Counted from the first letter of the stretch, positions 13,313 to 57,519 are shown. The stretch: DNA of 64,000 nucleotides from Treponema sp. (GCA_016286535.1 JAEESZ010000005.1:156585-220584); one strand, 5' to 3'. Made by a program: numbers and translations. The notes: generated from the letters alone by a model not told the origin.

Positions 13313-13849
13313 ATGAAAAAAAAGTTAATCGTTTTAATTGCTATCTTTGTAAGCTCAGCCTGTCTGTTTGCCAAGTCTTCAAATATTTTATTACAACTTG
13401 ATACAGAAATAAGTTATTGTCAGCTTTTTGGTTTTGAAGAGAAAGATTTTTCTATATATCCAATGCCAGTTTTAGAAGTAGATTATAAACTTCCTACAAG
13501 TTCATCTTTTAAGTCCTATCTGGGGTTTCAAGTTTTGCCGGCAATACCATTTTCTTCTGTTGTCGCTCTGGTAAATGACAGATTTGGATATGCATTTAAA
13601 AAGCCAGAAAAGTGGAATAAATATCATATAGAACTTCTTGGAAATGTTGGAGCAGGTGCTGTGTTTTTATTCTGGTATGGTGTGACTGTTTTACCTTTAG
13701 GAGATGTAGGATTCCAGATTTTCTTCATGCCGGAAGACAAAGGCTTTTTCTGGGGAGCAGGTCCAGATGTAATCTGTGTATGTGATTATGATTTTTCCAG
13801 TACAATGATTATGTTTTCTGTTTCTGTTAATCTTGGTTATAAGTTTTGA
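13313..13849 (+). CDS. Small secreted beta-rich protein, possible 8-stranded OMP-like barrel (paralog of 20214-20759)
   Basis: Signal peptide MKKKLIVLIAIFVSSACLFA/KSS, alternating hydrophobic pattern, and C-terminal GYKF (aromatic terminal residue, as in OMP beta-barrels). By eye it is about 30% identical to the 20214-20759 product. Confidence 0.5.
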   Translation: MKKKLIVLIAIFVSSACLFAKSSNILLQLDTEISYCQLFGFEEKDFSIYPMPVLEVDYKLPTSSSFKSYLGFQVLPAIPFSSVVALVNDRFGYAFKKPEKWNKYHIELLGNVGAGAVFLFWYGVTVLPLGDVGFQIFFMPEDKGFFWGAGPDVICVCDYDFSSTMIMFSVSVNLGYKF

Positions 13850-13887
13850 CAGGATTTTTAGCGGAGTATAAATACACTTCTTGCAAA

Positions 13888-14670
13888 TTATAAATTGCCG
13901 ATTGCTGAATCAGAAGTTTCATTTTTTATTTCTTTAAACACTATTTTACAGTCGTAATAGCATGCGATGAAGCCCTGTTTATCCCAAACTTGCAGAATAT
14001 CATAAATTCTATTAAGTCTGTTTCTAATTGTGCCTTCTGTTTTCTTTAATTCACTGGCAATAAGTTTGTACTGTTTATTGTCTAAAACTCCTTGCAGCAA
14101 AGGAATATCTTCTTCTTTTAGTCCTGAAAATTCGGCAAGATTCAAGACTTTATGAGAAGAACTTTCATTATTAGCATATCCAAATTGTACAAAAAAAATA
14201 ATGAGGGTTAAAAGGAATATGTAAGCACATGTGTCCAATATAAAAGAACAGAATTGGGTTTTATTAAAAGTGGTATTTATAAATATTAATACAAAAAGTA
14301 AAATAAATATAAATATTAACTTTAATGACTTTTTTTTGATAAAAAAGCCACGTGCATATAAGACGCTGATTCCTAGAAAATACATTATAATTCCCATAGG
14401 ATTATTTTTTTCGGAAACAATAATATCTATAGAATAGTAGAAACTGATAAATGAAAAAAATTCAATTTTTTGGGGATAAATAATTAAAATCGTAAATAAA
14501 ACGATGGACAATATGTTTTCACAATCAGATACTGTACTTCTTGGAGAGAATGTTACTCTATTAGGAGATAAAAATATATTATAAAGTTCAACAAAAACAA
14601 GTAAAACAATAGCAAGGATGGATAATATTCTTATATTAGTAAGATATTTTTTTTCAAGCTTTTTTTTCAT
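13888..14670 (-). CDS. Membrane protein with C-terminal LuxR/GerE-type HTH
   Basis: About 5-6 TM helices in the first ~165 aa. The C-terminal EEDIPLLQGVLDNKQYKLIASELKKTEGTIRNRLNRIYDILQV fits the LuxR/GerE (sigma-70 region 4-like) HTH pattern. Confidence 0.55.
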   Translation of the reverse strand: MKKKLEKKYLTNIRILSILAIVLLVFVELYNIFLSPNRVTFSPRSTVSDCENILSIVLFTILIIYPQKIEFFSFISFYYSIDIIVSEKNNPMGIIMYFLGISVLYARGFFIKKKSLKLIFIFILLFVLIFINTTFNKTQFCSFILDTCAYIFLLTLIIFFVQFGYANNESSSHKVLNLAEFSGLKEEDIPLLQGVLDNKQYKLIASELKKTEGTIRNRLNRIYDILQVWDKQGFIACYYDCKIVFKEIKNETSDSAIGNL

Positions 14671-14671
14671 T

Positions 14672-15226
14672 CTATTCTTTCCAACCGTTTATAGGTGCAT
14701 CGAAAATAGAATCTAACAGACTGTTAGAATAGCAGGAAATCTTTTGTTCAAGTTCTTTTTTTAACCCTTCATAATTCCATTTTTTAGAATTGAGAGGATT
14801 ATAGATATTATTTTCTTTATCAGATTTCTGAGAATTGTGGTAGCCTTCTATCATTATTAATGCCAGCATATTCATTCCATAAGAAAGGACGTTTTGGTCA
14901 CCGCCTTCAAATGTTGCAATACAATCTAAACGATTATACACGTTGAGATCATCAGATGGTAAATGGGCAAAGTATTTTTGGAAACCGCGTATTTCTGCAA
15001 TATAAATACATAAATGCGATATGGCTGTTCGTTCAGGTTCTACGCAGTTTGCGGCATAAGGAATGGCAGCAATTAATTTTGCAGTCCTACAGTTTGTGAA
15101 CCAAAGTTCTTCTTCTTTTGAAAAACGGAATACGACAGCAATTTCTTTTACTAAATAGTCCCAGGAGGCAATAAAAGACCCTTCTTCGTTCAATGTATAA
15201 GCAAGATTAGAATTGTACATATTCAC
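14672..15226 (-). CDS. Hypothetical cytoplasmic protein (184 aa)
   Basis: ORF only, with no signal peptide or motif I can assign. Its stop is 1 nt from the start of the LuxR-type gene, so the two probably form an operon. It is divergent from the lipoprotein operon. Confidence 0.45.
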   Translation of the reverse strand: MNMYNSNLAYTLNEEGSFIASWDYLVKEIAVVFRFSKEEELWFTNCRTAKLIAAIPYAANCVEPERTAISHLCIYIAEIRGFQKYFAHLPSDDLNVYNRLDCIATFEGGDQNVLSYGMNMLALIMIEGYHNSQKSDKENNIYNPLNSKKWNYEGLKKELEQKISCYSNSLLDSIFDAPINGWKE

Positions 15227-15378
15227 CTCGTTTTTTAAATTTATATTATTATACTCTTACCTGCGAAAAAATTCACCAAAATAAGGCGAGATGTATGTAA
15301 TATTTGAAAGTTTTGTGCTTGATAAATTCTTACTTCTTATAAACAATTTAAGAAAACAAGTTAATAAGGAGATGGTTT

Positions 15379-16530
15379 ATGAAGAAAACAAAAGTAAAAT
15401 GTGTTTTTATTGTTATGGCTATTTCTATGGCTTTAAGCTGTAAGAATAATGTTAATGTTCAGGTAAAGAATGGAGATAACAGTGCGCAGGCAATTGCAGA
15501 AGACTATTTTAATATAGTTTGCATGCAAAGCAATATGGTAAATGCAAGAGCACTAACCGAAGAGAGTTATCCGGATATTCTTTACGAAACAATAATAACA
15601 GATGAAAATGATGAAATAATCAGTTTTGCAGATTTAGATGCAAAAAGTCAGAAAGAATTTTATGAAATCTGGAAGGAAGATTTTATTGGAGATTTAACAG
15701 GAAAATTACTAACAGATTCTAACCTAAAAGAAATTGTAGAAATAGAAAATGAAGCCTTTATTGAGACTGCAAGTTCATCCAGCAGAGCAGTTTTTACAGA
15801 AAGAGATATAGAAAGTTTTTTTAAGCAATATGAAAAAAATTTTAATAAACTTGTTAAAAACTCTGTGGCTGCAAGAGGAGCTTCTTCCGGAAACTCTTTG
15901 ATAAGAATTGAAGATGGAGAAATAATTCCTGAATCTTTGAAAATCTTTTCAGAAAATTATAAGAAAGGAAGATTTCTTGTAAATACAAATTCTTCAGATT
16001 CTGATATTAGTGGGTACTTAGGACACACTTCTCTGATGTGTTATGATAATGTAGAACCAAATTGGGCAAAAGATATATCTTTAAAAGCAACAATCACATC
16101 ATATCCTCTTAATACTACTAAAGGAACAACCTGGGTAGGTCAGACTGATGGAGTTCAGTATGAACCAGTAGGATACTGGTGTGGAACAAAAGGTGCACCC
16201 ACAGTTTTAATTTTAGATGTATATCGGACTGTATGGAAGTGGTTTACAAAAACTGCATATATGGCAACAGACGAGGAACATAATACAGCTGTAGATAAAG
16301 CAGATGATCATTTAGGAAAGCCTTATAATTGGGATTTTGTCAAATTGAAGAAAGATAAAGGAATGTGGGATACAGATAAGTTTTATTGTTCATCTTTAGT
16401 ATTCAGAGCCTGGTATGATACAAATAAAAAGTATTCACTAAATACAAATATTCTTTATGTAAGACCTGCCAGTCTGGTTGCTTCTAACAACAGTATAATT
16501 ATTGCAAGATATGAGAATGAGGAGGAATAA
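15379..16530 (+). CDS. Lipoprotein with C-terminal YiiX/YaeF-like permuted papain-fold hydrolase domain (module copy A1)
   Basis: Lipobox MALSC. Motif order is YLGHTS ... DGVQYEPVGYW ... HLGKPYNWDF ... KFYCSSLVFRAWY, i.e. His before Cys, with GKPY-x-x-F and YCS-hydrophobic motifs as in the YiiX (C92) family. Confidence 0.7.
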   Translation: MKKTKVKCVFIVMAISMALSCKNNVNVQVKNGDNSAQAIAEDYFNIVCMQSNMVNARALTEESYPDILYETIITDENDEIISFADLDAKSQKEFYEIWKEDFIGDLTGKLLTDSNLKEIVEIENEAFIETASSSSRAVFTERDIESFFKQYEKNFNKLVKNSVAARGASSGNSLIRIEDGEIIPESLKIFSENYKKGRFLVNTNSSDSDISGYLGHTSLMCYDNVEPNWAKDISLKATITSYPLNTTKGTTWVGQTDGVQYEPVGYWCGTKGAPTVLILDVYRTVWKWFTKTAYMATDEEHNTAVDKADDHLGKPYNWDFVKLKKDKGMWDTDKFYCSSLVFRAWYDTNKKYSLNTNILYVRPASLVASNNSIIIARYENEEE

Positions 16531-17116
16531 ATGAAATTAGTACCTCTCTTTCTATCTCTTTTTGTATTTATTTCCTGTCAGAGCTGGTATAAGACCAGTG
16601 TAGATATGAGTAAAATAACAAACAAAACTACATACCAGCCTTTTACAGAATTAAATGACCCAATAGTTGTAAATATGCCAGTTTATGAGACACTTTACTT
16701 ATGGGGTAATGAAAACAATAAATTTAAGCAGAACAGAATAGGTGATATGTTTGTAATTTATGACTGGGAAAGTGATGAAATTTACGACTGGGTCTTTTAC
16801 GGGAATGAAAGTTTTTATTGTCTACCTAACATAATTCAAGTGGGAAGTAACCCCAAGTACTATATAAATTCTCTGGATTCTTCTGGAACAATAGCAAAGC
16901 TTGAAGCAGATAAGACAAGTGTAACTTTATATAAAACAGACAAGAGAGGTACTTTTTTTAATTATTCAACACCCGGAAAATACTGTCTTCGAGATTATGC
17001 AAGGCATTCAGATGAATTGAATAAGGTATTGTTTTGTCTGAATATATTTGACTGTGAAAAAGGCCAGTATACTGATGCAGATATACAGGTTCCTACAGAT
17101 GCCTATGGGTATATAA
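16264..17116 (+). repeat. Conserved block of the tandem duplication (copy 1); matches 18729-19581
   Basis: Alignment by eye at a constant offset of 2465 nt shows roughly 93-95% identity. The block spans the A1 C-terminus, the gene junction and B1 residues 1-195. The flanking segments are much more diverged. Confidence 0.75.
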
Positions 17117-17730
17117 GCCAACCTGTAGCAGATAATGAAGGAAACTTTTATTTTGCAAATGTATTAAATGGTTATAGTCATATTTATAGAGTAGATTGTA
17201 GTACAGAGACTGTGGAAATAAAAGATATAAATATAAATTGTTTTAAAAGTAATACAGAAGTATATGAATATACTTTTGATGTGCGTTATGTAATTGATGA
17301 GGAAAATCTTTTTGTATATAAGGGGCATTTAGGTTTGCCTCCATATTATGGGAATAAATTGTTTTTAATGTCTTTTACAGATAATGTTAGAAAAGAATTC
17401 ACTTTAGATTTGGATGGTTATAAATGGTTGTTTAGAATTGTCTGTTCAAATAGTAATTATTATGCAATTGTCGAAGACCGCTCTGACGAACAACATTTGG
17501 TTTATGTGTACAAACTTGATATAAATAATATGACAGGTGAGATAATAAACGAAAATAATCCAATAACAATAAATTTTAATCAAGAATTGTTTGTTCGAGG
17601 AACAAGAATATATTTTTTAAACTATTTAAATCGTCATAAGATTCAATATTCATACTTTGATGTAGAAACAAAAGAAGTTAGCGAGATAAAAGTCTTGAAC
17701 CAGAAAGAAGTAGTTGGCTTTGATTTTTAG
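16531..17730 (+). CDS. Beta-rich lipoprotein, partner of the hydrolase lipoprotein (module copy B1)
   Basis: Lipobox FISC. The ATG directly abuts the A1 stop (TAAATG), and a GAGGAGG Shine-Dalgarno lies inside the A1 3' end. Aromatic-rich strand-like repeats are present. No known motif. Confidence 0.6.
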   Translation: MKLVPLFLSLFVFISCQSWYKTSVDMSKITNKTTYQPFTELNDPIVVNMPVYETLYLWGNENNKFKQNRIGDMFVIYDWESDEIYDWVFYGNESFYCLPNIIQVGSNPKYYINSLDSSGTIAKLEADKTSVTLYKTDKRGTFFNYSTPGKYCLRDYARHSDELNKVLFCLNIFDCEKGQYTDADIQVPTDAYGYISQPVADNEGNFYFANVLNGYSHIYRVDCSTETVEIKDININCFKSNTEVYEYTFDVRYVIDEENLFVYKGHLGLPPYYGNKLFLMSFTDNVRKEFTLDLDGYKWLFRIVCSNSNYYAIVEDRSDEQHLVYVYKLDINNMTGEIINENNPITINFNQELFVRGTRIYFLNYLNRHKIQYSYFDVETKEVSEIKVLNQKEVVGFDF

Positions 17731-17840
17731 AGTACAAAATGATCATATTAGGGGTTTTCTCTGTTGATTATTTTGAATTGTATAAATAGACTTCAAAAAA
17801 AGATAATAAAATAAAAATTTAAAAATAAAAGGAGTTGTTT

Positions 17841-18995
17841 ATGAAAAAAACAAAATTAAAATGTATTTTTATTGTTACGGCTATTTTTATGGCTTTAAGC
17901 TGTAAGAATAATGTTACTGTTCAGCTAAAGGCAGGAGATAACAGTGCACAGACAGTTGCAGAAGACTATTTTAATATAGTTTGCATGCAGAGCAATATGG
18001 TAAATGCAAGAGCACTAACCGAAGAGTGTTATCCGGATATTCTTTATGAAACAATAATAACAGATGAAAATGATGAAATAATCAGTTTTGCAGATTTAGA
18101 TGCAGAAAGTCAGAAAAAGCTTTATGAAGTCTGGAAGGAAGATTTTATTAGAGAACTTACAGAAAAGATAGAATCAGATTCAGATTTAAAGGAGATGGTT
18201 GAATTAGAAAATGAAGCTTTTATGGAAACTGCAAGTAATTTGAATAGAACTGCCTTTGCAGAAAAAGACTTGGAAAGCTTTTTTAAGCAGTATGAAAAGA
18301 ACTTAAGTAAACTAATAGATAAAGCGGATACAGTGAGAAGAGCCTCATCTAAAAAGTCTTTAATAAGAATAGAAGATGGAAAACTAATTCAGAAATCTGT
18401 AACAATATTTTCAGATAATTATAAGAAGGGAAGAATTTTAGTTAATAAAAAAGGCAGTAGTTCAAATTCCGGCAGCTATCTCGGGCATGCATCCATGATG
18501 TGTTATGATGAAAAGAAAGATAAATGGACGGAAGATATTTCTGCAAAAGCAACAATAACTTCATATCCCCATAACACAGAAAGAGGGACTACCTGGGAAG
18601 GACAGACAGACGGAGTTCAATATGAACCAATAGGATACTGGTGTGGAACAAAAGGCGCTCCTTCAGTAATAATATTAGATGTAGGTTGTGAGGTATGGAA
18701 TAAAGATTTAGTAAAGACCTGGTATACTGCAACAGACGAGGAACATAATACAGCTGTAGATAAAGCAGATGATCATTTAGGAAAGCCTTATAATTGGGAT
18801 TTTGTCAAACTGAAGAAAGATAAAGGAATGTGGGATACAGCTAAGTTTTATTGTTCATCTTTAGTATTCAGAGCCTGGTATGATACAAACAAAAACTATT
18901 CATTACATACAAATTTTCTTTATGTAAGACCAGCCAGTCTGGTTGCTTCTAACAACAGTATAATTATTGCAAGATATGAGAATGAGGAGAAATAA
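17841..18995 (+). CDS. Lipoprotein with YiiX/YaeF-like permuted papain-fold hydrolase domain (module copy A2)
   Basis: About 75-80% identical to A1 by eye, with identical stretches at the N-terminus and across the last ~88 aa. Motifs YLGHAS and KFYCSSLVFRAWY. The ATG at 17841 is preferred over the TTG at 17835. Confidence 0.7.
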   Translation: MKKTKLKCIFIVTAIFMALSCKNNVTVQLKAGDNSAQTVAEDYFNIVCMQSNMVNARALTEECYPDILYETIITDENDEIISFADLDAESQKKLYEVWKEDFIRELTEKIESDSDLKEMVELENEAFMETASNLNRTAFAEKDLESFFKQYEKNLSKLIDKADTVRRASSKKSLIRIEDGKLIQKSVTIFSDNYKKGRILVNKKGSSSNSGSYLGHASMMCYDEKKDKWTEDISAKATITSYPHNTERGTTWEGQTDGVQYEPIGYWCGTKGAPSVIILDVGCEVWNKDLVKTWYTATDEEHNTAVDKADDHLGKPYNWDFVKLKKDKGMWDTAKFYCSSLVFRAWYDTNKNYSLHTNFLYVRPASLVASNNSIIIARYENEEK

Positions 18996-19581
18996 ATGAA
19001 ATTTCTACCTTTCTTACTCCCATTAACTTTATTTGTATCCTGTCAGAGCTGGTATAAGACCAGTGTAGATATGAGTAAAATAACAAACAAAACTACATAC
19101 CAGCCTTTTACAGAATTAAATGACCCAATAGTTGTAAATATGCCGGTTTATGAGACACTATATTTATGGGGTAATGAAAACAATAAATTTAAACAGAACA
19201 GAATAGGCGACATGTTTGTAATATATGACTGGGAAAGTGATGAAATTTACGACTGGGTCTTTTACGGGAAGGAAAGTTTTTATTGTCTACCCCACATAAT
19301 TCAGGTAGGAAGTAATCCTAAGTATTATATAAATTCTCTGGATTCTTCTGGAACAATAGCAAAGCTTGAAGCAGATAAAACAAGTGTGACCTTATATCAG
19401 ACGGACAGGAGAGGAACTTTCTTTAATTATTCAACGCCTGGTAAATATTGTCTTCGGGATTATGCAAGGCATTCAGATGAACTGAATAAGGTCTTATTTT
19501 GTCTGAATATATTTGACTGTGAAAAAGGAGAATATACGGCTGCTGATATTCAGATTCCTACAGATGCTTATGGGTATATTT
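18729..19581 (+). repeat. Conserved block of the tandem duplication (copy 2); matches 16264-17116
   Basis: See 16264-17116. Most differences are third-codon-position changes, for example ccc aag tac versus cct aag tat. Confidence 0.75.
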
Positions 19582-20195
19582 TGACTATAAATTCAAGTAA
19601 AAGTGGTGATTTTTATTTTGGGAATATCCTGGATGGTAAAGGACAAGTTTGTAAAGTGAATTGTGAAGCTGGAAGTGTAGAAATAAAAGAACCAGGGATA
19701 AACTGTTATAAAGAGAATTCAACAAGTTATAAATATAATATCGATGTAATATATATAAAAGATGATGATTTCTTATTCTTAAATAAAAGCCCCTTAGGTT
19801 CTGCTCCATATATAGGAAACAAACTATATCTGTATTCTTTCGCAGAAAATACAAAAAAAGAGTTCTCTTTAAGTACGAGTGGATATGAATTATTTAGTAG
19901 AATTGTACAAGTAAATGACAATTATTATTTAATTACCACAGATCATTCTTCAGAGGAGTGTTCAATTAGTATATATAAACTAAATCTTGAAAACATGTCA
20001 GGGGAAAAGATTAGCCAGGATAATTCTATTTTTATTTCACTAACACAGGAACCTCTAGTTCGAGGTAATAGAATTTATATTTTCAATTACTGGAACTCTC
20101 ATAAAATCCAATACCTATATTTTGATGTAGAAACAAAGGAAGTAAGCCCTATTAAAGTTCTGAACCAGAAAGAAGTAGTAGGCTTTGATTTTTAA
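18996..20195 (+). CDS. Beta-rich lipoprotein partner (module copy B2)
   Basis: Lipobox FVSC, with a TAAATG junction to A2. Residues 16-195 are about 97% identical to B1, residues ~196-370 only about 35-40% identical, and the last ~30 aa nearly identical again. Confidence 0.6.
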   Translation: MKFLPFLLPLTLFVSCQSWYKTSVDMSKITNKTTYQPFTELNDPIVVNMPVYETLYLWGNENNKFKQNRIGDMFVIYDWESDEIYDWVFYGKESFYCLPHIIQVGSNPKYYINSLDSSGTIAKLEADKTSVTLYQTDRRGTFFNYSTPGKYCLRDYARHSDELNKVLFCLNIFDCEKGEYTAADIQIPTDAYGYILTINSSKSGDFYFGNILDGKGQVCKVNCEAGSVEIKEPGINCYKENSTSYKYNIDVIYIKDDDFLFLNKSPLGSAPYIGNKLYLYSFAENTKKEFSLSTSGYELFSRIVQVNDNYYLITTDHSSEECSISIYKLNLENMSGEKISQDNSIFISLTQEPLVRGNRIYIFNYWNSHKIQYLYFDVETKEVSPIKVLNQKEVVGFDF

Positions 20196-20213
20196 TAATA
20201 AAAGGAGTTGTTT

Positions 20214-20759
20214 ATGAAAAAAAAGTTAATTGTGTTATTTATGTCATTTGTTTTGGGTGGAAGTGCTTTGTTTGCAGATTCGTTCCACTTCTTACTACAG
20301 GCAGATTGTGAGATTCCAAATCTAATTATTAATTATGATAAATCTTTATCTTTCTCTTTTTACCCATATCCAATGCCATTTTTAGAGACAAATTTTCAAA
20401 TGCCTTCAAAAGCTAATGAAAGAATTTACCTTGGATTAAAATTACTTCCTACTGGAATGGGTGGAATAGTTGAGATTTCTTCACGTTTTGGAGGAATTAT
20501 TAAAGAATCTAAAATCTGGGATAATCATAATGTAGAAATTCTTGGTGGCTTTGCAGCAGGTGTTGAAATAGGTTTGCTCGATGCAGTCTACATAGTCCCA
20601 ACTTTTGATATGAATTTTCAAGCATTTTTAATGCCAGATAATAAAGGATTCTATGTTGGCTTAGGACCAAATATCAAAATGATGCTGGATATTTATAGCA
20701 GTAATTTTTCTTTTGAAGCTTTTATTTCTGCCATGCTGTGTGCGGGGTATAAATTCTAG
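20214..20759 (+). CDS. Small secreted beta-rich protein, OMP-like (paralog of 13313-13849)
   Basis: Signal peptide MKKKLIVLFMSFVLGGSALFA/DS and C-terminal GYKF. It is co-oriented with B2 and starts 18 nt after it. The ATG at 20214 is preferred. Confidence 0.5.
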   Translation: MKKKLIVLFMSFVLGGSALFADSFHFLLQADCEIPNLIINYDKSLSFSFYPYPMPFLETNFQMPSKANERIYLGLKLLPTGMGGIVEISSRFGGIIKESKIWDNHNVEILGGFAAGVEIGLLDAVYIVPTFDMNFQAFLMPDNKGFYVGLGPNIKMMLDIYSSNFSFEAFISAMLCAGYKF

Positions 20760-20787: not shown

Positions 20788-22860
20788 CTATTTCTTTAAA
20801 TCAAGAATAGCTTCAATTACCTTGTCTGTACCTTCCTTTAATGATTCCGTTGCTTTAGTTACAATCTGGCCGGCTTCTTTCAGATTATTCAAAGATTCCA
20901 GAACAAGCTTACTGCCTTCGTTTTCTTCTGCAACTGCATTCTTTACTTCCAGATCCTGATTTCTTACCATAGTTGTAAGTTCAACAATATTTTCAAATTC
21001 ATTAGTAGTAGAAATTGTTTTTGAATATGCCGAATCAATTAAAGCTTTTATCTGATTAAGAACTTCAGAAATCTTTTTGGTTTCACGGTTAGAACTTTCT
21101 GCAAGGTTACGAATTTCGTCTGCAACAACAGCAAAGCCTGCTCCGAATTCTCCTGCATGAGCCGCTTCTATGGCTGCATTCATTGCAAGTAAGTTTGTCT
21201 GGCTTGCAATCTGCTGAATCATATTACTCATTTCTGAAAGGCCTTTAGAATTCTGTTCAATCTGAGCAACAATCTCTTTTACATCGTTAATATTTTCTTT
21301 ACCGGAAAGTGTTGCATTTTCCAGATTCTGTACAGTTTGTGCATTAGATTCCAGAGCAGTATTAATAGACTTAATATTTGCAATCATTTCTTCAATGGCG
21401 GTGGAAGATTCATTTACAGCATTTGTCATCTGGTCTGTTACGGTAGAAAGGCTTCCAACATGATTTTTTGTCTGGTTAAGCTGGGCAACGCTTTCGTCTG
21501 TAACTTCCTGAATTGTTTCGTTAATTTTTTCTGTAAGCTTTTCTTCATGGATTCTTACATTTTCATTAATCAGGAAGTGGTGGCAGTTTTCGTATTTGTT
21601 TATACCGTTATAAATAGCAGTTGCCATTTGTTCGCAGGAACTATAACCGCAGGCTCCACAATTTAAAAAGTCTGATTTTTTTCTTTTACCCATAACGGCA
21701 TAAATTTCATTTAATTCTTCCTGGGTAGGAATTTTTATGAATTTTTTAACTGCGTCACTGCGGTCAACATAAGTTCTGGTGTAAAGGTCTTCCTTCCAGT
21801 ATTTGTTAATTACTTTTTCAAGCTTTTTAAGTCCCAGTAAAGAAGATGTCTTTAATTCCTTCTTACGTTTTTCCATTCGGTCTTCAATAAAGGTTTCCAG
21901 TTCGTCTAAAGGCATTTGCTGATTTACTGTTCCAGCTCCACAGTTACAGCCTCGCTCACAGTTTAAGCAGTCAATTAATTTATATTTAATCTTCTTGCCC
22001 TCTTTTAGGGTCTGGCTTAATTCATTGAAGTAATTTGTCATTACAGGCTGGCCTTCAATTTTTCTGGTATTTTCTGCAATACCTGGAACAAAACGAAGGG
22101 CTGTGCGCATAAGTCCGCCGGGAGTTGAGTATAAAACGGCTCTTTCGGCAGGAGGATTTTCGTATGCGGTCTTTGGAAAATCAGACAGTTTTAATTTGTT
22201 GTTTTCAAAATACTCACTTATAGAACGCATGGAAACGTTGTAATCGCCAAGTCCGTTTTCGTCAAATTCACGTCGTTTTGCATAACAGGGAGAAATTGCT
22301 GCCATTTTGTATCCTTTATATTCAGGATAAAAATGTTTGATTAATGCAAAAGTATGAGCCATGGGGCTGTCGGCAGGACTAAGATATTTAATAAGGTCTG
22401 GTTTGTAAAGCTCTATATAACTTACCAGGGCAGGACAAGGCTGCGAAATAACCAGTTCCGGATTATGCTTTTTAATATATTCAACATAAGATTTTGTAGT
22501 AAGTTCTGCACCAAAAGAAACGTCAAAAACGGCTTTTACACCAATTGATTTTAACCAGCCGTTAAGTTCTAAATCCTGTCCTTTAAAATTGGCAGCAGCA
22601 GCAGGCGCTACAATTGCAACAATTTTTTCTCCCTTTTTAAGGTCATCCATAAAGGCCTGAAAATCATCAATTCCTCGTCTTGCATCATGCGCACAGGCGG
22701 CAATACAGGCACCGCAACCAATACAAAGTTCATGATTAATTGTTACATAATCTTTTGAGCCATCGTTACAGAATTTTGAAGGGCATACAGCAATACAGCG
22801 ATGGCAGTTCACACATTTTTCTGAATCCAAAGAAATTACTTGTTTTAATGGTGCTGACAT
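20788..22860 (-). CDS. [FeFe]-hydrogenase-like sensory domain fused to a methyl-accepting chemotaxis signalling domain (soluble chemoreceptor)
   Basis: Two N-terminal 4Fe-4S motifs ([23 protein letters not shown]). H-cluster-like motifs are [15 protein letters not shown] and [10 protein letters not shown]. An extra CGACGYSSC-x16-C motif follows. The C-terminus carries the MCP hairpin [33 protein letters not shown] prefer the start at 22860, which has a GGAGAG Shine-Dalgarno. Confidence 0.8.
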
Positions 22861-22954
22861 TGTTCTCTCCATTCTTATAGTAAATTTCATTATAGAACAC
22901 AAAAGAAGAATTTAGCAATTCAAATTCACAACCTTAAAGGAAATTTTCCTTATG

Positions 22955-41672: not shown

Positions 41673-42842
41673 TTATTTGGGATTAATTGTCATGGTAGAG
41701 TAGTCCATAACATAAGTGTAGGGCGCTTTTTCCCAGGTATCTAAGTCAAAATAGGTATAAGAGTCATTTCCGTACATAAAATAAATACGACTGCCACGTA
41801 ACCATTCATTTTCTGTTGCCCAGATATCAATACGGTCACTAACACGTTCTACTTCGAGAGTATCAGTATTTATCTGATATACATAAACACAATAGTAATT
41901 TGTTATGTTCGATTTACCAAAACACTCAATATATAATTTATCTTTGTATAAAAAACCGCTTGGCAAATAACCATCATCTATATCTTCGGGAAAACTGTAA
42001 CTCTTTTCTGAAATCAGATTTCCTGTTTCGGAACTATATTTTCTTATAATGCTTTCATAATCATTTACAACTGAAGACTGAAATAAGATTCCGTTCTTTA
42101 CAGCAATGACTTTATCAGTACCATGGCTTTTAAAATTAATTACATCGTCTATCGTGTAATTATTGCAGTCGATTTTTGCCAGATATCGTAAATTTTCGAA
42201 TTGTCTGTCTTTTTTCTCGTAAGAAATCCAAAGATAACCATTATCATCTTCAATTGGAAATGTTATATCTGATTCTGTTTCAAATCTAATTTTATCTTTC
42301 AGAAGAATTTCTTTTTCTGCATCAAAGAAGCTGCAGGTTGTTTGTGGATAATTTTCATAGTAATCAAACATAATACCTTTTTCTCCTTTAAAAAAGGATG
42401 GTTCTATGTAACTATGTACATCACTTGTGTCGTAAATTGTAACTTTGTTTGAATCAGGACTTATACAGCCTACAACTCCACCATAAGATGATGAATAATA
42501 TTTCTTTGGAGAGGTGCCTAATTCTATAGCTCTTTTCATTACAGAGCCAGGATTGCTTGGGTAATAAACCCAGTCAAAAATAGTATCGGTCTCCCAGTCT
42601 ATAACCACAAAAACGTTACCCCTGTTATAAGATACTCCGTCCAGGCAGGGAAGTCCTAAAAAGGTCTTTTCCCACATAACATCTGCAATTATAACAAGAG
42701 GGTCATTTAAATGTTCAAAGTTCTTTATAGTTGTTTTTCCGGTAACCTTTCCGTCATCCCAGTAAGGTATGCAGGAAGAAAATAAAAAGAATATGGAAAT
42801 AAGGAAAAGTCTGCAGATAAATTTATAAAAATTATTTTTCAT
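41673..42842 (-). CDS. Beta-rich lipoprotein partner (module copy B3, diverged)
   Basis: Lipobox FSSC. It is homologous to B1/B2: LNDPLVII...VFVVIDWETDTIFDWVYY...SPKKYY versus LNDPIVVN...MFVIYDWESDEIYDWVFY...NPKYY, and RGSRIYFMY...YFDLDTWE versus RGTRIYFLN...YFDVETKE. The ATG at 42842 is preferred. Confidence 0.6.
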   Translation of the reverse strand: MKNNFYKFICRLFLISIFFLFSSCIPYWDDGKVTGKTTIKNFEHLNDPLVIIADVMWEKTFLGLPCLDGVSYNRGNVFVVIDWETDTIFDWVYYPSNPGSVMKRAIELGTSPKKYYSSSYGGVVGCISPDSNKVTIYDTSDVHSYIEPSFFKGEKGIMFDYYENYPQTTCSFFDAEKEILLKDKIRFETESDITFPIEDDNGYLWISYEKKDRQFENLRYLAKIDCNNYTIDDVINFKSHGTDKVIAVKNGILFQSSVVNDYESIIRKYSSETGNLISEKSYSFPEDIDDGYLPSGFLYKDKLYIECFGKSNITNYYCVYVYQINTDTLEVERVSDRIDIWATENEWLRGSRIYFMYGNDSYTYFDLDTWEKAPYTYVMDYSTMTINPK

Positions 42843-42852
42843 ATACACTTCC

Positions 42853-44055
42853 TTATTTATTTACGTATGTATTTATAACTTTAATCTTTGAAGACTTTGC
42901 AAGTTCTTTTGGAGTGACCCACCAGCCTTCGTTTTCAAGGATATAATCTTTAGAAACTCCTTTCCAGGCTAAATAAACTAATTGAGAACAGTATATTCCT
43001 TTTTCTGTGCTATCGTGACCATGGAATAAAGAATAGTTTTTTCCATAATACTTTTTTGCACATTCTACAGCCTTCAGACATTCTTCAAGACTTGCCCTGT
43101 CATCTACACTGTTTTGCTCATTTAATTCTCCATCATCATAGACAAGATTCTGTTTTTTTACATAGTAGACAGAGACAGTTTTTGCAGAACTTCCGGCATT
43201 TCCTGCCCAGTAACCTACGGGCTCATCCTGTACGCCATCTATTTTTCCTTCCCACTGTCCACCTTTTCCTAATGGGCTAGATGTAATTGAAAGTTTTAAT
43301 AAAGCATTCTTTTGAAAATCGTCATTCCATTTCCCAGTTTTTATCAGAGCAGCATGACCTTTACCTCCCCTTCCATTAGAACTATTATCAGGAGTAATCA
43401 GTATAAGTCCGCTGCCCTGTGGATCTTCTTCCTCCTCATATTTTTGAAAACAATTCCTTAAGGCATTCATTGATTCTAGTACTCCAGAATCTTTTTTAAT
43501 CGGATCTTTTTTGTTTGCTTTTCTTGATGTACTTTCTGGCTCATTAAGACTAGAATATTTATCAATATTTTCAAAATATTTAGACATAAAGTTCTCATAA
43601 TTTTTCAGTGCAGAACGTGAAGCTGTACTGTAAGTTTCTTCAAAAGCTGCAAGATCTACAAGAAGAAGTTCCCTAAATACAGGGTCTTCTTCAAGTTTGT
43701 TTTCAATCTCTTTGCTTCTGAACTTTTTCCAGGCCTCTGTGAATCTGGCTTTTTCATTGTTGTCTAAATCGAGAAAGGATTTTTCTGTATTATTTTCATC
43801 AAAGAAAGTTATTTCATTTAAAAATTCTGGATAAGTGTAAGCTGCTCTTGCAGAATTTTCTATTGCATCTAATCGCCACATATTTTCGATTTCTTTTTCT
43901 GCAAGTTCATGGCTGGAAAGATTTTCCATAACCTGAAGATATGTAAAATCGGTTCTTTGCGGGGTCTTTACTGTAACTGAGTTTTTGCATGATAATAACA
44001 GTAAAACGTTTAATAAAGATGTTAAAATAAAAAGATTTTTAATTTGGTGTTTCAT
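42853..44055 (-). CDS. Lipoprotein with YiiX/YaeF-like permuted papain-fold hydrolase domain (module copy A3, diverged)
   Basis: Lipobox LLLSC. Motifs GKGHAALI ... IDGVQDEPVGYW ... YYGKNYSLF ... GIYCSQLVYLAW. The N-domain aligns with A1/A2 (NSARAAYTYPEFLNEITFFDENN versus VNARALTEESYPDILYETIITDEND). Confidence 0.65.
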   Translation of the reverse strand: MKHQIKNLFILTSLLNVLLLLSCKNSVTVKTPQRTDFTYLQVMENLSSHELAEKEIENMWRLDAIENSARAAYTYPEFLNEITFFDENNTEKSFLDLDNNEKARFTEAWKKFRSKEIENKLEEDPVFRELLLVDLAAFEETYSTASRSALKNYENFMSKYFENIDKYSSLNEPESTSRKANKKDPIKKDSGVLESMNALRNCFQKYEEEEDPQGSGLILITPDNSSNGRGGKGHAALIKTGKWNDDFQKNALLKLSITSSPLGKGGQWEGKIDGVQDEPVGYWAGNAGSSAKTVSVYYVKKQNLVYDDGELNEQNSVDDRASLEECLKAVECAKKYYGKNYSLFHGHDSTEKGIYCSQLVYLAWKGVSKDYILENEGWWVTPKELAKSSKIKVINTYVNK

Positions 44056-51141: not shown

Positions 51142-53958
51142 CTACCACCACTTTCTGTTATCGTTAAGATACTTTAAGTGGATATTCTTTATTTTTAATC
51201 CATCTGCCCCTACATAAAGGCGGCAGATGGAGAAACGTTCAGGAAGGGTAAGCTGTTGAGTAATCGAAACATCCTGCCCTTTACTTCCATTAAATACCAT
51301 ACTTACCATAGGAATTCCCTGATAGAAGATTGTTACAGGCAGCTGTGCTACCTGGCCGGCATCTGAACTTGCGGTAAGACTTACTTCGTAAGTTCCAGGG
51401 CATTCAACATCGAAAGGTAAAGAGAAGTTTGTTTTAGCCTTGCTTTCTTTGTAAGTTAAGTCGTAGGTTAGCTCTTTTCCAAGAGGAATAAATTTAACTT
51501 CATCAATTGTAATTTCTGACTCATCTGCTTTTTTATTGATGATTTCCACCTTCTGCTGGCTATTCAAAAGTCTTTGCATTGCCTGAGACTTCATTACAAA
51601 ATTACAGATGTTGATGGCGTTACGCTGCAGTTCTCCTCGGGAAATTTTTCCGTTCTCAAGTGATTCAAGGGTGTTGTCTCCCATGGTGTTTTTGCTTCCG
51701 TCCGGGCAAACCATGTAAAGGTCGTTCTGGGCTCCAATCATCTGGGCAAAGTTTTTATTGTCTGCCTTGCCGCCAGGAGTGTTGATGTCTGCCCACCAGT
51801 CGGTCATTACAATTCCTTTAAAGCCCCATTCCTTGCGCAGTACAGTTGTACACAGATCATAGTTTCCTGCTGTGTAAAGGCCGTTTACCATTCCGTATGT
51901 GGTCATAACAGAGTCTGCACCATTTTTTACGGCAATTTCGAAGCCCTTGAGGTAGATTTCCCTTAAGGCTCTTTCTGAAACAATGGAGTTGTGGGCTCTG
52001 CGGTTTGTTTCCTGGTTATTTGCACAAAAGTGTTTGATTGTTCCTGTTACGCCGGCTGTCTGTAAGCCCTGAACCATGGCGCTTCCTATCTGACCGGTAA
52101 GATAAGGATCTTCAGAAAAATATTCAAAGTTACGGCCGTTTAAAGGATGACGGTGTATGTTCATTCCGGGGCCTAAAAGGTTTTCTACCTTGTTGCTCAC
52201 TAATTCAAGACCGGTAAAGCTGTAAAGTTCCTTTACAAGTTCCTTATTAAAGGTTGAGGCAATTGAAGTTCCGTTTGGTAAAGAGAAGGCTTTAATTCCG
52301 CAGTCCAGGCGCATGCCGGAAGGTCCGTCATCGCAGCAGCAGACTGGTATTCCAAATTCTTCCCTCAAGCGGGGAGAAACTCCTCCAAAGGCAGAGGCGG
52401 TTCCGGCAGTAACCAGGGAACTTCCCATTCCTTCTCCACGGATAAGGCAGCTTAAATCTTCATCGCTAAGAAGAGATACAAAATCTTCCATGCTGATTTT
52501 TTTATTATATACATCTTCAAGTCTGTATTTTCCTGTAAGCTTATTTGTAAGGTCTGCAGGGCGGTTTTGAAGTCTTACTTTAAGGCTGTCATTTGTTGAA
52601 CTTGGGCTGTCTTCCATAATGAGATTAATGTTTTCATTTGTTTCGGAAACAGCATTTACTGCGGCAATAGCATTTTTACTGCCCGCAGCTTCTGCATGAA
52701 AACGCTTAAAACTTTCTACAGGAGCCATAACTTCTTCGCACTGTGTAAGAATCAGATTTTCTTCTATATTAAAAGTAAAAATCTCTTTTGCACTTCTTAC
52801 GTCTGAGCCTGCAAAAAGCTGATATTTTCCTGCTTCAAGAAGCCAGCAGGATTTGTTCTTTGTAATACCGGAATCATCATAAGAAGCAAAATTATAATAT
52901 GGAATTACGAAGTCTATGCTTTCTGACTGACCAGCCTTTAATAAAGCAGTTTTTTCAAAATCTACAAGAACTTTATCTGCCTTTCCAAGTTTTCCCTGTG
53001 GAGCCTTTATATAGATTTGTGCAACTTCTTTTCCTGCTGTCTTTCCACAGTTGCTTACTTTTAATTTTACAGAAAGTTCTTTTGCTTCAAAATTATTTTT
53101 TACTTGCAGGCTTTCTATATTAAAGTTTGTATAACTCAAACCAAAGCCAAAGGGAAAGAGAACCTTGTCTTTTGCAAAAGTTTCAAAATAGCGGTAGCCC
53201 ACAAAAATATCTTCGCTGTAAATGTTTGCTGCAGGATTTCCAAAATTCTTTGAAGAAGGATAATCATCAAGGCTTTTTGCAATTGTATCGGTAAGTTTAC
53301 CACATGGATTTACTTCGCCAGTAAGCGCCTGTGCTGTTCCAAGTCCTCCAAGCATTCCTCCCTGCCATACATACATAATGGAATCTGGTTTACAGCTTTC
53401 TGCAAAGCCCATATCAATGATGTTTCCAACATTCAGAAGAACTGCCATTTTTTTAAAGGCTTTTCTTACTACCTGCATCATCATTAATTCTTCATCACTA
53501 AGATAGTAAGAACCTTTTTCTGCCTTGTTATCTTTTTCTTCGCCTGCAGTACGTCCAATAATTACAATTGCAATATCAGACTTTGCGGCTGCGGCTTGTG
53601 CAACTTCGCTGCTAAGAGGCATTTCTTTCTGGGACCATTTTGTACCTTCCCAGCCGATTCCGGCATCATAGGGATTTTCTTTTTCCCAGTCTTCGTAAAT
53701 TTTCTTGAGTTCCTGATTAATCTGAACTCCTTTTAACTCAAGACCTTCTACTATATTATAAACTTTATCGACGTTTACCATTCCGCCGGAACCGGTTCCG
53801 CTTTTATAGTAGTTTGTTTGAATTCTTCCAAAAACAGAAACTTTATCTGTTTTATTCAATGGAAGAACATTGTTATTATTTGTTAATAAAACACAACCTT
53901 CTGCAATTGTCTGAATTGCACACTCTTCGTATTTTTTCCAGTCTAAAATCTTATTCAT
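51142..53958 (-). CDS. GH3 beta-glucosidase with permuted domain order
   Basis: GH3 C-terminal-domain motifs (IVIIGRTAGEEKD, GEVNPCGKL, FGFGLSYT) lie in the N-terminal half. Catalytic TIM-domain motifs (DDGPSGMR, KHFCANNQETNR, VMTDWW) lie in the C-terminal half. Confidence 0.85.
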   Translation of the reverse strand: MNKILDWKKYEECAIQTIAEGCVLLTNNNNVLPLNKTDKVSVFGRIQTNYYKSGTGSGGMVNVDKVYNIVEGLELKGVQINQELKKIYEDWEKENPYDAGIGWEGTKWSQKEMPLSSEVAQAAAAKSDIAIVIIGRTAGEEKDNKAEKGSYYLSDEELMMMQVVRKAFKKMAVLLNVGNIIDMGFAESCKPDSIMYVWQGGMLGGLGTAQALTGEVNPCGKLTDTIAKSLDDYPSSKNFGNPAANIYSEDIFVGYRYFETFAKDKVLFPFGFGLSYTNFNIESLQVKNNFEAKELSVKLKVSNCGKTAGKEVAQIYIKAPQGKLGKADKVLVDFEKTALLKAGQSESIDFVIPYYNFASYDDSGITKNKSCWLLEAGKYQLFAGSDVRSAKEIFTFNIEENLILTQCEEVMAPVESFKRFHAEAAGSKNAIAAVNAVSETNENINLIMEDSPSSTNDSLKVRLQNRPADLTNKLTGKYRLEDVYNKKISMEDFVSLLSDEDLSCLIRGEGMGSSLVTAGTASAFGGVSPRLREEFGIPVCCCDDGPSGMRLDCGIKAFSLPNGTSIASTFNKELVKELYSFTGLELVSNKVENLLGPGMNIHRHPLNGRNFEYFSEDPYLTGQIGSAMVQGLQTAGVTGTIKHFCANNQETNRRAHNSIVSERALREIYLKGFEIAVKNGADSVMTTYGMVNGLYTAGNYDLCTTVLRKEWGFKGIVMTDWWADINTPGGKADNKNFAQMIGAQNDLYMVCPDGSKNTMGDNTLESLENGKISRGELQRNAINICNFVMKSQAMQRLLNSQQKVEIINKKADESEITIDEVKFIPLGKELTYDLTYKESKAKTNFSLPFDVECPGTYEVSLTASSDAGQVAQLPVTIFYQGIPMVSMVFNGSKGQDVSITQQLTLPERFSICRLYVGADGLKIKNIHLKYLNDNRKWW

Positions 53959-54133
53959 AGGCGTTATAGTAGAGAAAATTTTTCTTTATGGGAAGAGGCG
54001 AAAAAGCCCATGAGAAATTTTAAAACAAAATTTAATGATAATAAAGCGAATAATTTTATATTTACTATATGATTTCGGATTTATTATTTTAATGGAAAAT
54101 AAAGTCTGAAAAAGACAAGATAGAGGAGTAATT

Positions 54134-55552
54134 ATGAAAAAAATGTTCAAGAGGACAATTTCTACTGCAGTATTTGCAGCATTGGTTCTTTCTAGTGTAA
54201 CAGCTTTGCCTTTCGGAAAGAAAGCAAAAAAAACATCAAAAATTGAATACACTCAGTTTGATGATGTAGAAAAGAAAACAGACAAGTCAGGAAAAGTTTA
54301 TGATCTTGGCGGAATGAGTATTGCAATTGTTGACTGGTGGTCAGGAAAAAATGCAGAAGATATTCCTGCAAACTCTCCTGCAGAAGAAGAAACTCGTGCT
54401 TTCCACAAATGGCTTCAGCAGACTTACAACTTCACAATGATTCAGAAACAGCTTGGTGTAAGCTGGGATAAACATCCTGAAGATGTTGCTAACTTCTGTA
54501 TGTCTAAATCAAAAGAAAATTACGTTATCGTAATTGACCCACGTTCTGCAATTACCGGTGTAAAAGCAGGTCTTTATTATGATTTATCTAAATTAGATAA
54601 CATTGACTGGTCAGATCCAAAATGGGCTTCTGGAACAGAAAAAGTTCTTACAAAAGGAAAATCATTCTATGCAATGCGTCCTTTAGCTCCAGAGCCACGC
54701 GGTGGTGTATTCTTCAATAAACGTCTTTTACAGGAAGCAGGTATTGATCCAGATCTTCCTTACGATTTACAGAAACAGGGAAAATGGACATGGAAAACCT
54801 TTGAAGACCTCGTAAAAAAATGTACTTTCGATGCTGATAACGACGGTGTAATCGATCACTACGGTATGGCTAACTCTTCAACAGAATTTGTTCCATTAGC
54901 AGTTATGTCTAACGGTGTTCACATGATTGGCCGCGACAAAAACGGAAAATTAGTAAACAATGTTGGAACAGATCAGTCACTTGAAGCTTTATCATGGTGT
55001 GCTCACATGGCTACTTCTTACGAAATGCCACAGCCAGAAGGATCTAACTGGGACTGGATGTATGCTGCATTCCTTAACGGACAGGTTGCTTTCTTAGTTG
55101 ACCAGCAGTATCACACAAACAGAAACGGAGACTTCTTCAACATGGTTGATGACTACGGATTTGTTTGCTTCCCATTAGGACCAAAAGGTGACGGAAAATA
55201 TAAGACACTTCATAACGATAACATGTATGTTCTTCCTGCTTTCTATGATGATGCTCGCGCTGCAAAAATTGCAAAAGCCTTTGACTTGTGGACAGACTCA
55301 ACACCAGGTTATGATGGACCAGATGCATGGAAAGACGGTTTCTATCCTTGCTTCCGCGATGCCCGTGCTGTAGATGAAACTCTTGAATTAATGCGTGCTG
55401 AACCAAATCCACGTTTTGATACAATGATATCTGGCATAAATTACATGGGTGATGTAATATGGGTAGTATACCCTGGTTATGTAACACCACAGCAGGCTTA
55501 TGAAGATACTAAAAATAACTGGGCAGCTTTAATTAAAGAGGCAACATACTAA
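54134..55552 (+). CDS. Extracellular solute-binding protein (family 1, sugar-type)
   Basis: Signal peptide, 472 aa, SBP-like pattern. No permease or ATPase genes lie adjacent to it. Confidence 0.6.
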   Translation: MKKMFKRTISTAVFAALVLSSVTALPFGKKAKKTSKIEYTQFDDVEKKTDKSGKVYDLGGMSIAIVDWWSGKNAEDIPANSPAEEETRAFHKWLQQTYNFTMIQKQLGVSWDKHPEDVANFCMSKSKENYVIVIDPRSAITGVKAGLYYDLSKLDNIDWSDPKWASGTEKVLTKGKSFYAMRPLAPEPRGGVFFNKRLLQEAGIDPDLPYDLQKQGKWTWKTFEDLVKKCTFDADNDGVIDHYGMANSSTEFVPLAVMSNGVHMIGRDKNGKLVNNVGTDQSLEALSWCAHMATSYEMPQPEGSNWDWMYAAFLNGQVAFLVDQQYHTNRNGDFFNMVDDYGFVCFPLGPKGDGKYKTLHNDNMYVLPAFYDDARAAKIAKAFDLWTDSTPGYDGPDAWKDGFYPCFRDARAVDETLELMRAEPNPRFDTMISGINYMGDVIWVVYPGYVTPQQAYEDTKNNWAALIKEATY

Positions 55553-55553
55553 T

Positions 55554-56708: not shown

Positions 56709-56742
56709 TTATAAAGTCCGGCTTTAAGTGGCTTAGTCCCAT

Positions 56743-57519
56743 TTATTGCTGAGGCAAAATATCTTTATTTTTGAAATACTGCTGGTAATGCAATTTACGA
56801 TATTCGTAAGGTGTGTTACCAGTATGTTTTTTAAAGACATTAATAAAATGACTGTGGGAAGAGAAGGCAAAATAATTGCTGATATCCACAGAAGAATAAT
56901 CTGTATAAACAAGCATCTTTTCTGCGGCTTCAATTTTTAACTTTGTAGCGTATTGAAAAATTGTAATGCCGGTTTCTTTTTTAAACAATTCACACAAATA
57001 AGATTTATTGATTTTTAAGTGGCTGCTTATTTCGTCCAGGGAGATTTTTGTATTCAAGTGATTGTAAATGTATTCAGAAGTTTTTAATACATTTTTTGAC
57101 AGACCTACATTCTTATGAATTTTATGCATGCGTTCTGTAAAATCAAAAACAACTTCCTGATGAAGAATAATTATTTCGTCTGTAGTTTTACAGTTATCAA
57201 GCTGCTGAATATAAATATCACTAAGAGTGTAGGCAGATTCTGCAGGCATACCACCTTCAATACAAAAGCGGGTAATCATGGCAATTGTAATAATAAGGTG
57301 GTAGCGCAGGTTTCTTAATGGGTTGGAAGATAATTTTCCTAATTTATTCGATGTGATTGGAACCAGATGCTTTTTTACTTCTTCAAAATCTCCGCTGCGA
57401 ACCGCATTGTAAAAGTGCATTTCGTCGCTGTAGGGAAGATGAAAATTTGCATACTCCTGCTGAAGGAATAATTTGTAAGAAAGTATAGGTTCTTTATCCA
57501 TATTATAAATTCTCTCCAT
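56743..57519 (-). CDS. AraC family transcriptional regulator
   Basis: C-terminal double HTH (LDEISSHLKINKSYLCELFKKETG and FSSHSHFINVFKKHTGNTPYEYR). The ATG at 57501 is an alternative start. Confidence 0.8.
   Translation of the reverse strand: MERIYNMDKEPILSYKLFLQQEYANFHLPYSDEMHFYNAVRSGDFEEVKKHLVPITSNKLGKLSSNPLRNLRYHLIITIAMITRFCIEGGMPAESAYTLSDIYIQQLDNCKTTDEIIILHQEVVFDFTERMHKIHKNVGLSKNVLKTSEYIYNHLNTKISLDEISSHLKINKSYLCELFKKETGITIFQYATKLKIEAAEKMLVYTDYSSVDISNYFAFSSHSHFINVFKKHTGNTPYEYRKLHYQQYFKNKDILPQQ

Follow-up and report, generated by a model that had tools for sequence, protein, structure and literature searches.

In a 64,000-nucleotide stretch of DNA from Treponema sp. (GCA_016286535.1, JAEESZ010000005.1:156585-220584; hereinafter the window), we identified three copies of a two-gene unit in which a gene coding for a predicted thiol enzyme of the YaeF/YiiX type, A, is immediately followed by one coding for a predicted beta-propeller lipoprotein, B, and we found that strains of one species replace whole cassettes of this kind. 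The unit would be a two-lipoprotein cassette of the Treponema cell envelope, often accompanied by a third small protein, C. In the explanation that we favor, and to which we give about an even chance, B serves as dock or controller for a fatty-acyl-directed A within an envelope complex, and the cassette is under diversifying selection. The A and B genes and the junction element between the tandem pairs, with positions counted from the first nucleotide of the window, are as follows:

15379-16530 (+): A1 lipoprotein, 383 residues; an acidic helical N-terminal domain (about residues 35-165) followed by a predicted YiiX-type permuted NlpC/P60 domain
16531-17730 (+): B1 lipoprotein, lipobox FISC, 399 residues; modeled as all-beta with about seven blades of three to four strands, the N-terminal half conserved and the C-terminal half variable
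17771-17920 (+): conserved 'handle' comprising the A2 leader and the first 27 codons of A2 (signal peptide and lipobox); a breakpoint for cassette exchange
17841-18995 (+): A2 lipoprotein, 384 residues; paralogue of A1 with the same catalytic residues
18996-20195 (+): B2 lipoprotein, 399 residues; paralogue of B1
41673-42848 (-): B3 lipoprotein, lipobox FSSC, 389-391 residues; recovered with the B profile (hmmsearch, E 1.4e-70)
42853-44055 (-): A3 lipoprotein, lipobox LLLLSC, 400 residues; recovered with the A profile (hmmsearch, E 4.4e-75)

The tandem pairs had been described in a first-pass annotation made from the sequence alone, and its gene coordinates, abutting stop and start codons, Shine-Dalgarno sequence and 110-nucleotide spacer were all reproduced in our open reading frame (ORF) list and the junction sequence. 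At the A1/B1 junction the TAA at 16528-16530 abuts the ATG at 16531-16533, with a GAGGAGG at 16519-25, and the A2/B2 junction has the same arrangement (GAGGAGA-AA-TAAATG). The sole long spacer is that of 110 nucleotides between B1 and A2; the ATG of A2 lies 6 nucleotides after a GGAG, and a TTG at 17835 overlaps this ribosome-binding site. Like the recurrent C genes and the exchange of cassettes between strains, the third pair (41673-44055, minus strand) is absent from the first-pass annotation; it emerged from a search of the window and of the fetched loci (denoted below by L numbers) with A and B profiles. In this pair, B3 starts 4-10 nucleotides past the A3 stop codon, A3 displays the motifs GKGHAALI, IDGVQDEPVGYW, YGKNY and IYCSQLV, and the proteins are 25-36% identical to those of the tandem pairs, of which A1 and A2 share 76% and B1 and B2 73% of their residues. 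It is flanked by a phenylacetate-CoA-ligase-like gene and energy-coupling factor (ECF) transporter genes.

Across the loci, B was the next gene after A in each of the 11 distinct cases with readable downstream DNA (three in the window, L001 and L009, L004, L005, L006-8, L012/13, L017, and L020), and the A genes with no visible B (L002, L018, and L019) all lie at contig ends. In most pairs with readable coordinates (the three of the window, L004, L006, L012, L017, and L020), A and B are separated by at most 10 nucleotides or overlap by 4; the gap in L001 is 152 nucleotides. The A-B loci otherwise sit in unrelated genomic contexts, with the order and the near-zero spacing kept down to 25-28% identity, and the pairwise identities of A and B co-vary (Pearson r 0.91 over 36 pair comparisons; 0.74 without the close tandem pair). 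The linkage proposed in the first-pass annotation stood in this one direction, from A to B; it failed in the other, as B is found without A in at least five distinct contexts (L003 and the first B of L017; L011; L014; L015/16; L021-26). For instance, in a pig-gut Treponema a solitary B is encoded in a DUF4954-B-leuA context on six contigs (L021-26) and belongs to a 90% identity cluster of 295 members. B-C pairs devoid of A also occur. As B, alone or with C, is present and conserved where A is missing, B looks like a hub and A like a dependent add-on. We found no account of the A-B pairing in the searchable literature, in line with the first-pass remark that no described system of this architecture was known; the obligate A-to-B arrangement and the cassette-style exchange are new, and a lipoprotein hydrolase with a lipoprotein partner is a known theme.

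An explanation that would dispense with any functional link is that A, B, and C are neighboring variable lipoprotein and membrane-protein families that are co-inherited and vary under immune or phage pressure. Spirochaetes have many paralogous, strain-variable lipoprotein families, and co-divergence of A and B is expected from linkage alone. We nevertheless hold this to be unlikely: the A-to-B order and near-zero spacing persist in unrelated contexts at 25-28% identity, and stop and start codons that overlap or abut are a sign of coupled expression.

By its sequence, A belongs to the YaeF/YiiX family of permuted NlpC/P60 proteins, of which it is a divergent representative with its catalytic residues intact and an extra helical N-terminal domain. 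A profile of the A family matched the crystal structure of YiiX (2if6, E 6.7e-5), and profile-profile comparison with hhalign aligned A with Escherichia coli YiiX at 93.6% probability (A1 254-343 with YiiX 64-136, spanning DGVQYEP...GKPY...YCS). When the AlphaFold2 model of A (pLDDT [predicted local distance difference test] 76 and pTM [predicted template modeling score] 0.78, from a 9-sequence alignment) was compared with viral models using Foldseek, the first match was OPG091, of the poxvirus G6R type (E 5.5e-5), and ranks 2 and 3 were taken by 'YaeF/YiiX C92' proteins (E 1.9e-3 and 1e-2). These results agree with the first-pass reading of A as a permuted papain or NlpC/P60 protein of the YaeF/YiiX type. 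Its link to the Pfam family PF05708 was recovered in part: eight of the nine A-family members matched at E<=0.1 (best E 7.3e-9) and two A relatives carry a precomputed PF05708 annotation, but both tandem copies of the window (A1, 24.0 bits; A2, 21.8 bits) score under the curated 27-bit cut-off.

The Cys and His proposed as catalytic residues are conserved, as is the Tyr of the GKPY motif: none of the 16 A-family sequences compared, the most distant at 25-28% identity, departs from His216, Tyr316 (GKPY), and Cys337 (YCS), which correspond to His49, Tyr115, and Cys128 of YiiX (PMC3142127). They occur in the order His, oxyanion Tyr, Cys, that is, in permuted order. Candidates for a third catalytic residue among the same 16 sequences are the invariant Ser241 and the near-invariant Asp257. 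The lipobox Cys21 is present in 15 of the 16 and conforms to a relaxed spirochaete lipobox pattern; the conserved part of A is its catalytic C-terminus. The lipoboxes (MALSC, FISC, FVSC) and the four A motifs listed in the first-pass annotation were found in the translated proteins, and the N-terminal domain, which it called acidic and helical, has an isoelectric point of 4.3-4.4 and is helical in the structure model. In the A gene of L020 (about 1084-2304) and in P0004, we observed long Ser/Gly/Asn-rich low-complexity inserts (SSGSGSSSN repeats) within the linker that immediately precedes the catalytic His motif.

We class A as a new subfamily within an enzyme family already known. Like E. 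coli YiiX/YaeF and Bacillus cereus BcPPNE (PF05708, MEROPS C92; 2IF6, 3KW0), it would combine a permuted NlpC/P60 core with a His-Tyr (GKPY)-Cys (YCS) constellation, and like YiiX it is predicted to be exported, A being lipid-anchored and YiiX having a signal peptide. Unlike YiiX/YaeF, A has the extra acidic helical N-terminal domain of about 170 residues and, from the His strand to the DGVQYEP motif, a stretch lengthened by an insertion of about 14-25 residues; moreover, A always comes with a downstream gene for a predicted propeller partner, whereas yiiX has no comparable downstream gene.

The first-pass statement that the substrate of this family is still unknown is out of date, since binding or cleavage of fatty-acyl substrates has been described for permuted NlpC/P60 enzymes (PMC3142127, PMC12994826, PMC7387801). 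YiiX was crystallized with a fatty acid inside its hydrophobic S1 pocket, a pocket that in the permuted type is ill-suited to peptides, and was proposed to cut the amide bond that joins a fatty acid to a peptide, as found in lipoproteins (PMC3142127). The permuted enzymes Tox-Act1 and TseH act as phospholipases (PMC12994826), and LnsA has a role in lipoprotein N-acylation (PMC7387801). As the permuted branch acts on fatty-acyl substrates in this literature, peptidoglycan is a less likely target of A. By analogy with the family, A would be a membrane-anchored thiol enzyme that forms an acyl-thioester through His216, Tyr316, and Cys337 and hydrolyzes or transfers a fatty-acyl group of a phospholipid or of a lipidated protein; cutting of peptidoglycan would be improbable.

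Two further accounts of the pair bear on this point. In one, A would be a peptidoglycan endopeptidase or amidase and B its lipoprotein regulator, acting as NlpI does for MepS. The MepS-NlpI system pairs a lipoprotein hydrolase with a lipoprotein adaptor and is a precedent for such an arrangement; A belongs to the NlpC/P60 superfamily, and A and B are both envelope lipoproteins by prediction. Against this, A is of the permuted type, with a hydrophobic S1 pocket unfit for peptides (PMC3142127), and housekeeping wall enzymes are neither swapped between strains at 37% identity nor deleted outright; we deem a role in cell-wall remodeling very unlikely. In the other account, A would remove or transfer a lipoprotein acyl chain, with B as the first candidate substrate, altering the anchoring, release, or host recognition of B. 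The fatty acid-peptide amide cleavage proposed for YiiX (PMC3142127), the involvement of the YiiX-like LnsA and of DUF4105-type enzymes in lipoprotein N-acylation (PMC7387801, PMC12994826), and the co-production of A and B, both lipoproteins, are all consistent with it. Nevertheless, B occurs and is conserved without A, and three divergent A copies per genome would be odd for a general modification enzyme, so that such acyl remodeling has in our estimate a slim chance of being correct.

Searches of Pfam, NCBIfam, PADLOC, and PHROGs gave no match for B, in keeping with the first-pass finding of no motif that could be named, and its sequence is, as had been noted, aromatic-rich (15-17% aromatic residues). 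A word-indexed search yielded 8 relatives; an exhaustive profile search of 1.84 billion representatives, which covered the B family, yielded 148 at E<=1e-3, nearly all of about 400 residues, the family amounting to 148 clusters at 50% identity. All the named relatives are 'Treponema sp.'; this taxonomic range draws on metagenome records and these names, because a genome scan with the narrow B alignment gave one locus. The lipobox Cys16 is invariant across 60 diverse B sequences, and the B lipoboxes, like those of A, fit the relaxed spirochaete pattern. The structure model of B (pLDDT 66, from a 9-sequence alignment) is all-beta, with about seven groups of three to four strands; it is confident for residues 150-390 only, the first 150 residues being poorly modeled. 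Foldseek searches with it retrieved the propellers TolB, Kelch, and YncE (E 3e-8 to 1e-5, at low TM-scores of about 0.35), and the B profile gave weak matches to solved structures, including a DUF4374 protein (9gar, E 0.0015), Kelch, and BtuG-like 'surface layer proteins'. On the strength of this model, B is predicted to be a beta-propeller lipoprotein of about seven blades, constituting a new Treponema-only family that has no Pfam model.

In being a propeller of about 400 residues, B as modeled resembles the TolB, BtuG-type, and DUF4374/XusB-type lipoproteins, the best Foldseek match being TolB 7mx5 (E 3e-8). Unlike these, it reaches a TM-score of about 0.35 with no significant sequence match and has no tol-pal or TonB-transporter neighborhood. 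We also considered whether B might be TolB or BamB and rejected both on context, copy number, and the low TM-scores: no tol/pal neighbors were seen at B genes, and B is a multi-copy lipoprotein with similarity at the level of the fold only.

Two of the fetched loci, L003 and L017, have flanks 97% identical to those of the window over 3-5 kb and therefore come from the same species as the window strain. Their islands share a helix-turn-helix (HTH) gene with that of the window, which also has a strain-specific 184-residue ORF (X184), and are laid out in the following order:

Window: C, HTH, X184, A1B1, A2B2, C
L003: C remnant, HTH, B, C, C
L017: C, HTH, B, C, C, A, B, C

The full pair of L017 shares 37-40% (A) and 27-28% (B) of its residues with the window pairs. 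The window handle at 17771-17920 is 97-100% identical at the nucleotide level to L017 5915-6082, after which identity drops to about 50%; the drop after codon 27 of A places a recombination breakpoint just past the A lipobox. The orphan B of the two loci (L003 8001-9245; L017 3415-4659), an allele 98% identical between them, opens with 17 codons from the start of A, joined in frame to the B signal peptide, which indicates that A was precisely deleted and that B is now under the promoter of A. The tandem modules of the window are mosaics of recently homogenized and anciently diverged segments. Synonymous divergence (dS) between A1/A2 and B1/B2 is about 0.05-0.2 in codons 1-100 of A and from codon 300 of A through codon 60 of B, and is saturated in the middle of A and in codons 180-360 of B; at the protein level, B1 and B2 are nearly identical over residues 20-180 and about 45% identical over residues 180-360. 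A test for positive selection gave the variable blocks an omega of 0.2-0.6, values that carry no information at saturated dS.

No A or B relatives were found on viral contigs and no B relatives on plasmids, the plasmid search having been made with B; with these results and the lack of PADLOC or PHROGs matches, we rejected a mobile-element origin of the cassettes. The window has no Rfam family anywhere along its length, and its promoter and terminator counts are no higher than in shuffled sequence. It contains no convincing inverted repeats, leaving phase variation by promoter inversion unsupported.

The chief alternative to the envelope complex is that the cassette is an effector-immunity pair, with A as a lipid-attacking phospholipase toxin for neighboring treponemes, displayed on the surface or on vesicles, B as its cognate blocker in the envelope of the producer, and orphan B as protection against the A of other strains. 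A was never seen without B, whereas B was seen without A; two strains retain, at 98% identity, the orphan B left by the precise deletion of A, and one of them has a different full pair as well; at a fixed AT-rich site, the proteins of the cassette types of one species diverge by 60-73%; the enzyme gene precedes that of its partner, with coupled translation; and the catalytic residues of A are always intact. Permuted NlpC/P60 toxins that attack lipids and have their immunity gene downstream offer a precedent (PMC12994826). If correct, this would be the first lipoprotein-borne, secretion-system-independent antagonism system in spirochaetes, with traded cassettes and orphan B as acquired protection, a claim that we regard as tentative at best.

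Several features speak against such antagonism. The sole export signal of A is a lipoprotein (signal peptidase II, SPII) signal peptide, with no delivery domain, and no genes of type V, VI, or VII secretion systems (T5SS, T6SS, T7SS) were seen in the scanned and annotated parts of the window or in the syntenic loci. B is predicted to be a 400-residue propeller, and beta-propellers are absent from the immunity proteins in a 2012 survey (PMC3482391). Solitary B is stable and highly conserved in a housekeeping context in the pig-gut species, and the frequent B-C pairing is left unexplained. Further, the conserved part of A is its catalytic C-terminus, unlike in classical polymorphic toxins, and PADLOC and PHROGs gave no matches. 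An effector-immunity function is accordingly possible but doubtful in our view.

The A-B unit can be compared with the Tox-Act1/Imm-Act1 and TseH/TsiH pairs of T6SS (PMC12994826). Like them, the A-B unit would encode a permuted NlpC/P60 envelope enzyme with a cognate gene immediately downstream, has conserved His and Cys residues (essential or conserved in the T6SS pairs), and lies at strain-variable loci. Unlike Tox-Act1 and TseH, A is a Sec/SPII lipoprotein by prediction, and the annotated stretches of the window showed neither a T6SS nor another delivery system; unlike the small, membrane-associated Imm-Act1 and TsiH, B would be a 400-residue propeller lipoprotein that also exists as a stable stand-alone gene. 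A second comparison is with LnsA/LnsB of Staphylococcus aureus (PMC7387801), in which a YiiX-like permuted enzyme depends on a second protein for its action on a lipid-linked envelope substrate, a dependence that we propose for A and B too. In contrast to B, LnsB is a polytopic membrane protein of the CPBP family, its gene lies elsewhere in the genome, and the system is single-copy and not hypervariable.

We favor the envelope complex with B as its hub because B and B-C are conserved without A, A has a lipoprotein signal only, B is a large predicted propeller, and variable lipoproteins are usual in spirochaetes. As the stop and start codons abut or overlap, B would be made from the message of A and in a fixed ratio to it. 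Alone or with C, B would serve as the hub, namely a docking platform, substrate presenter, or regulator for the dependent A, with C as an optional membrane partner, and A and B would be in physical contact. Diversifying pressure would act on the cassettes, probably at the surface of the cell, and recombination would take place at conserved ends, with the A signal-peptide region on one side and the B C-terminus and intergenic DNA on the other. The elements drawn directly from the data are the family and catalytic residues of A, the class of fold and lipoprotein character of B, the adjacency of A and B, and the swapping of cassettes; the contact of A with B, the lipid substrate, and surface exposure are deductions.

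Several observations weigh against this explanation. The apparent rule that A never stands alone comes from 11 cases in a small locus set of short contigs gathered by a biased search, and adjacency and A-B co-divergence are also expected from simple co-inheritance. The orphan B genes and the strict dependence of A on B suit an immunity role at least as well. The models of both A and B were built on shallow 9-sequence alignments, and the whole two-domain model of A gave no significant Foldseek match to the Protein Data Bank (PDB). YiiX Glu64 has no clear counterpart in A, as hhalign pairs it with the non-conserved Gly254. The lipid substrate of A is deduced by analogy from relatives that are less than 20% identical to it, and surface exposure is presumed.

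The cellular role of bacterial YaeF/YiiX-type enzymes is poorly understood, and an A with an obligate, co-translated partner and natural swaps offers a route to both substrate and control. B adds an unnamed, Treponema-restricted family of predicted propeller lipoproteins. The site between sbcD and the hydrogenase-like chemoreceptor gene is one at which whole envelope-protein cassettes are exchanged within a gut treponeme species, which is relevant to competition between strains, to escape from phages or antibodies, and to strain typing. Were the antagonism account true, it would entail a new delivery mode for a lipid-targeting toxin.

The remaining genes of the island are:

13313-13849 (+): C1, 178 residues, with a signal peptide, beta-rich, C-terminal GYKF; paralogue of C2
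13888-14670 (-): polytopic membrane protein of 260 residues with a C-terminal HTH of the LuxR/sigma70-region-4 type; part of the conserved flank
14672-15226 (-): the strain-specific X184, 184 residues, with no signal peptide
20214-20759 (+): C2, a C-type protein of 181 residues, starting 18 nucleotides after B2

C1 and C2 are 37% identical. As in the window, B is followed by C-type genes in L003, L017, and L015/16, probably also in L014. Pfam and NCBIfam gave no match for C, and a C-family profile retrieved nothing from the PDB sequences; we infer that C is a small outer-membrane-barrel-like protein. In L015 (4577-8681), a B-C pair lies between proA-like (Aldedh) and proB-like (AA_kinase) genes, as if a cassette had been inserted into a proline-biosynthesis operon. 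The gene for the 260-residue HTH protein is divergently transcribed from the A-B genes; the protein shows a weak match to Sigma70_r4_2 (E 0.011) and is 98% identical in L003. Similar membrane HTH proteins are encoded near A or B genes in unrelated loci (L002 3443-4159; L014 633-1373, GerE, 24.2 bits), and this recurrent polytopic LuxR/GerE-type protein may be a membrane-bound regulator of the cassettes. X184 matched no family, and the stretch encoding it is missing from the same-species loci L003 and L017.

The AT-richness of the island noted in the first-pass annotation was substantiated by a windowed count: its guanine-plus-cytosine (GC) fraction is 0.309, against 0.381 in the rest of the window, making it the lowest-GC 7.6-kb stretch of the 64 kb, about 2.7 standard deviations under the mean. 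The third pair is AT-rich too (GC of A3, 0.339; of B3, 0.326). Beyond the island, the genes in the annotated parts of the window are those of ordinary metabolism and of glycoside hydrolases. The neighbor that had been called a hydrogenase (20788-22902, minus strand) does contain a domain like the Fe-hydrogenase large subunit, along with a 4Fe-4S domain, but it is no plain hydrogenase, as these are fused to a methyl-accepting chemotaxis signaling domain; the fusion suggests a redox- or H2-sensing chemoreceptor. Further along (51142-58831 and 62666-63961) lies a cluster of GH3, GH5 (cellulase), and GH1 glycoside hydrolase genes with a Lip_C lipase-like gene, which fits a saccharolytic gut or rumen-type Treponema.

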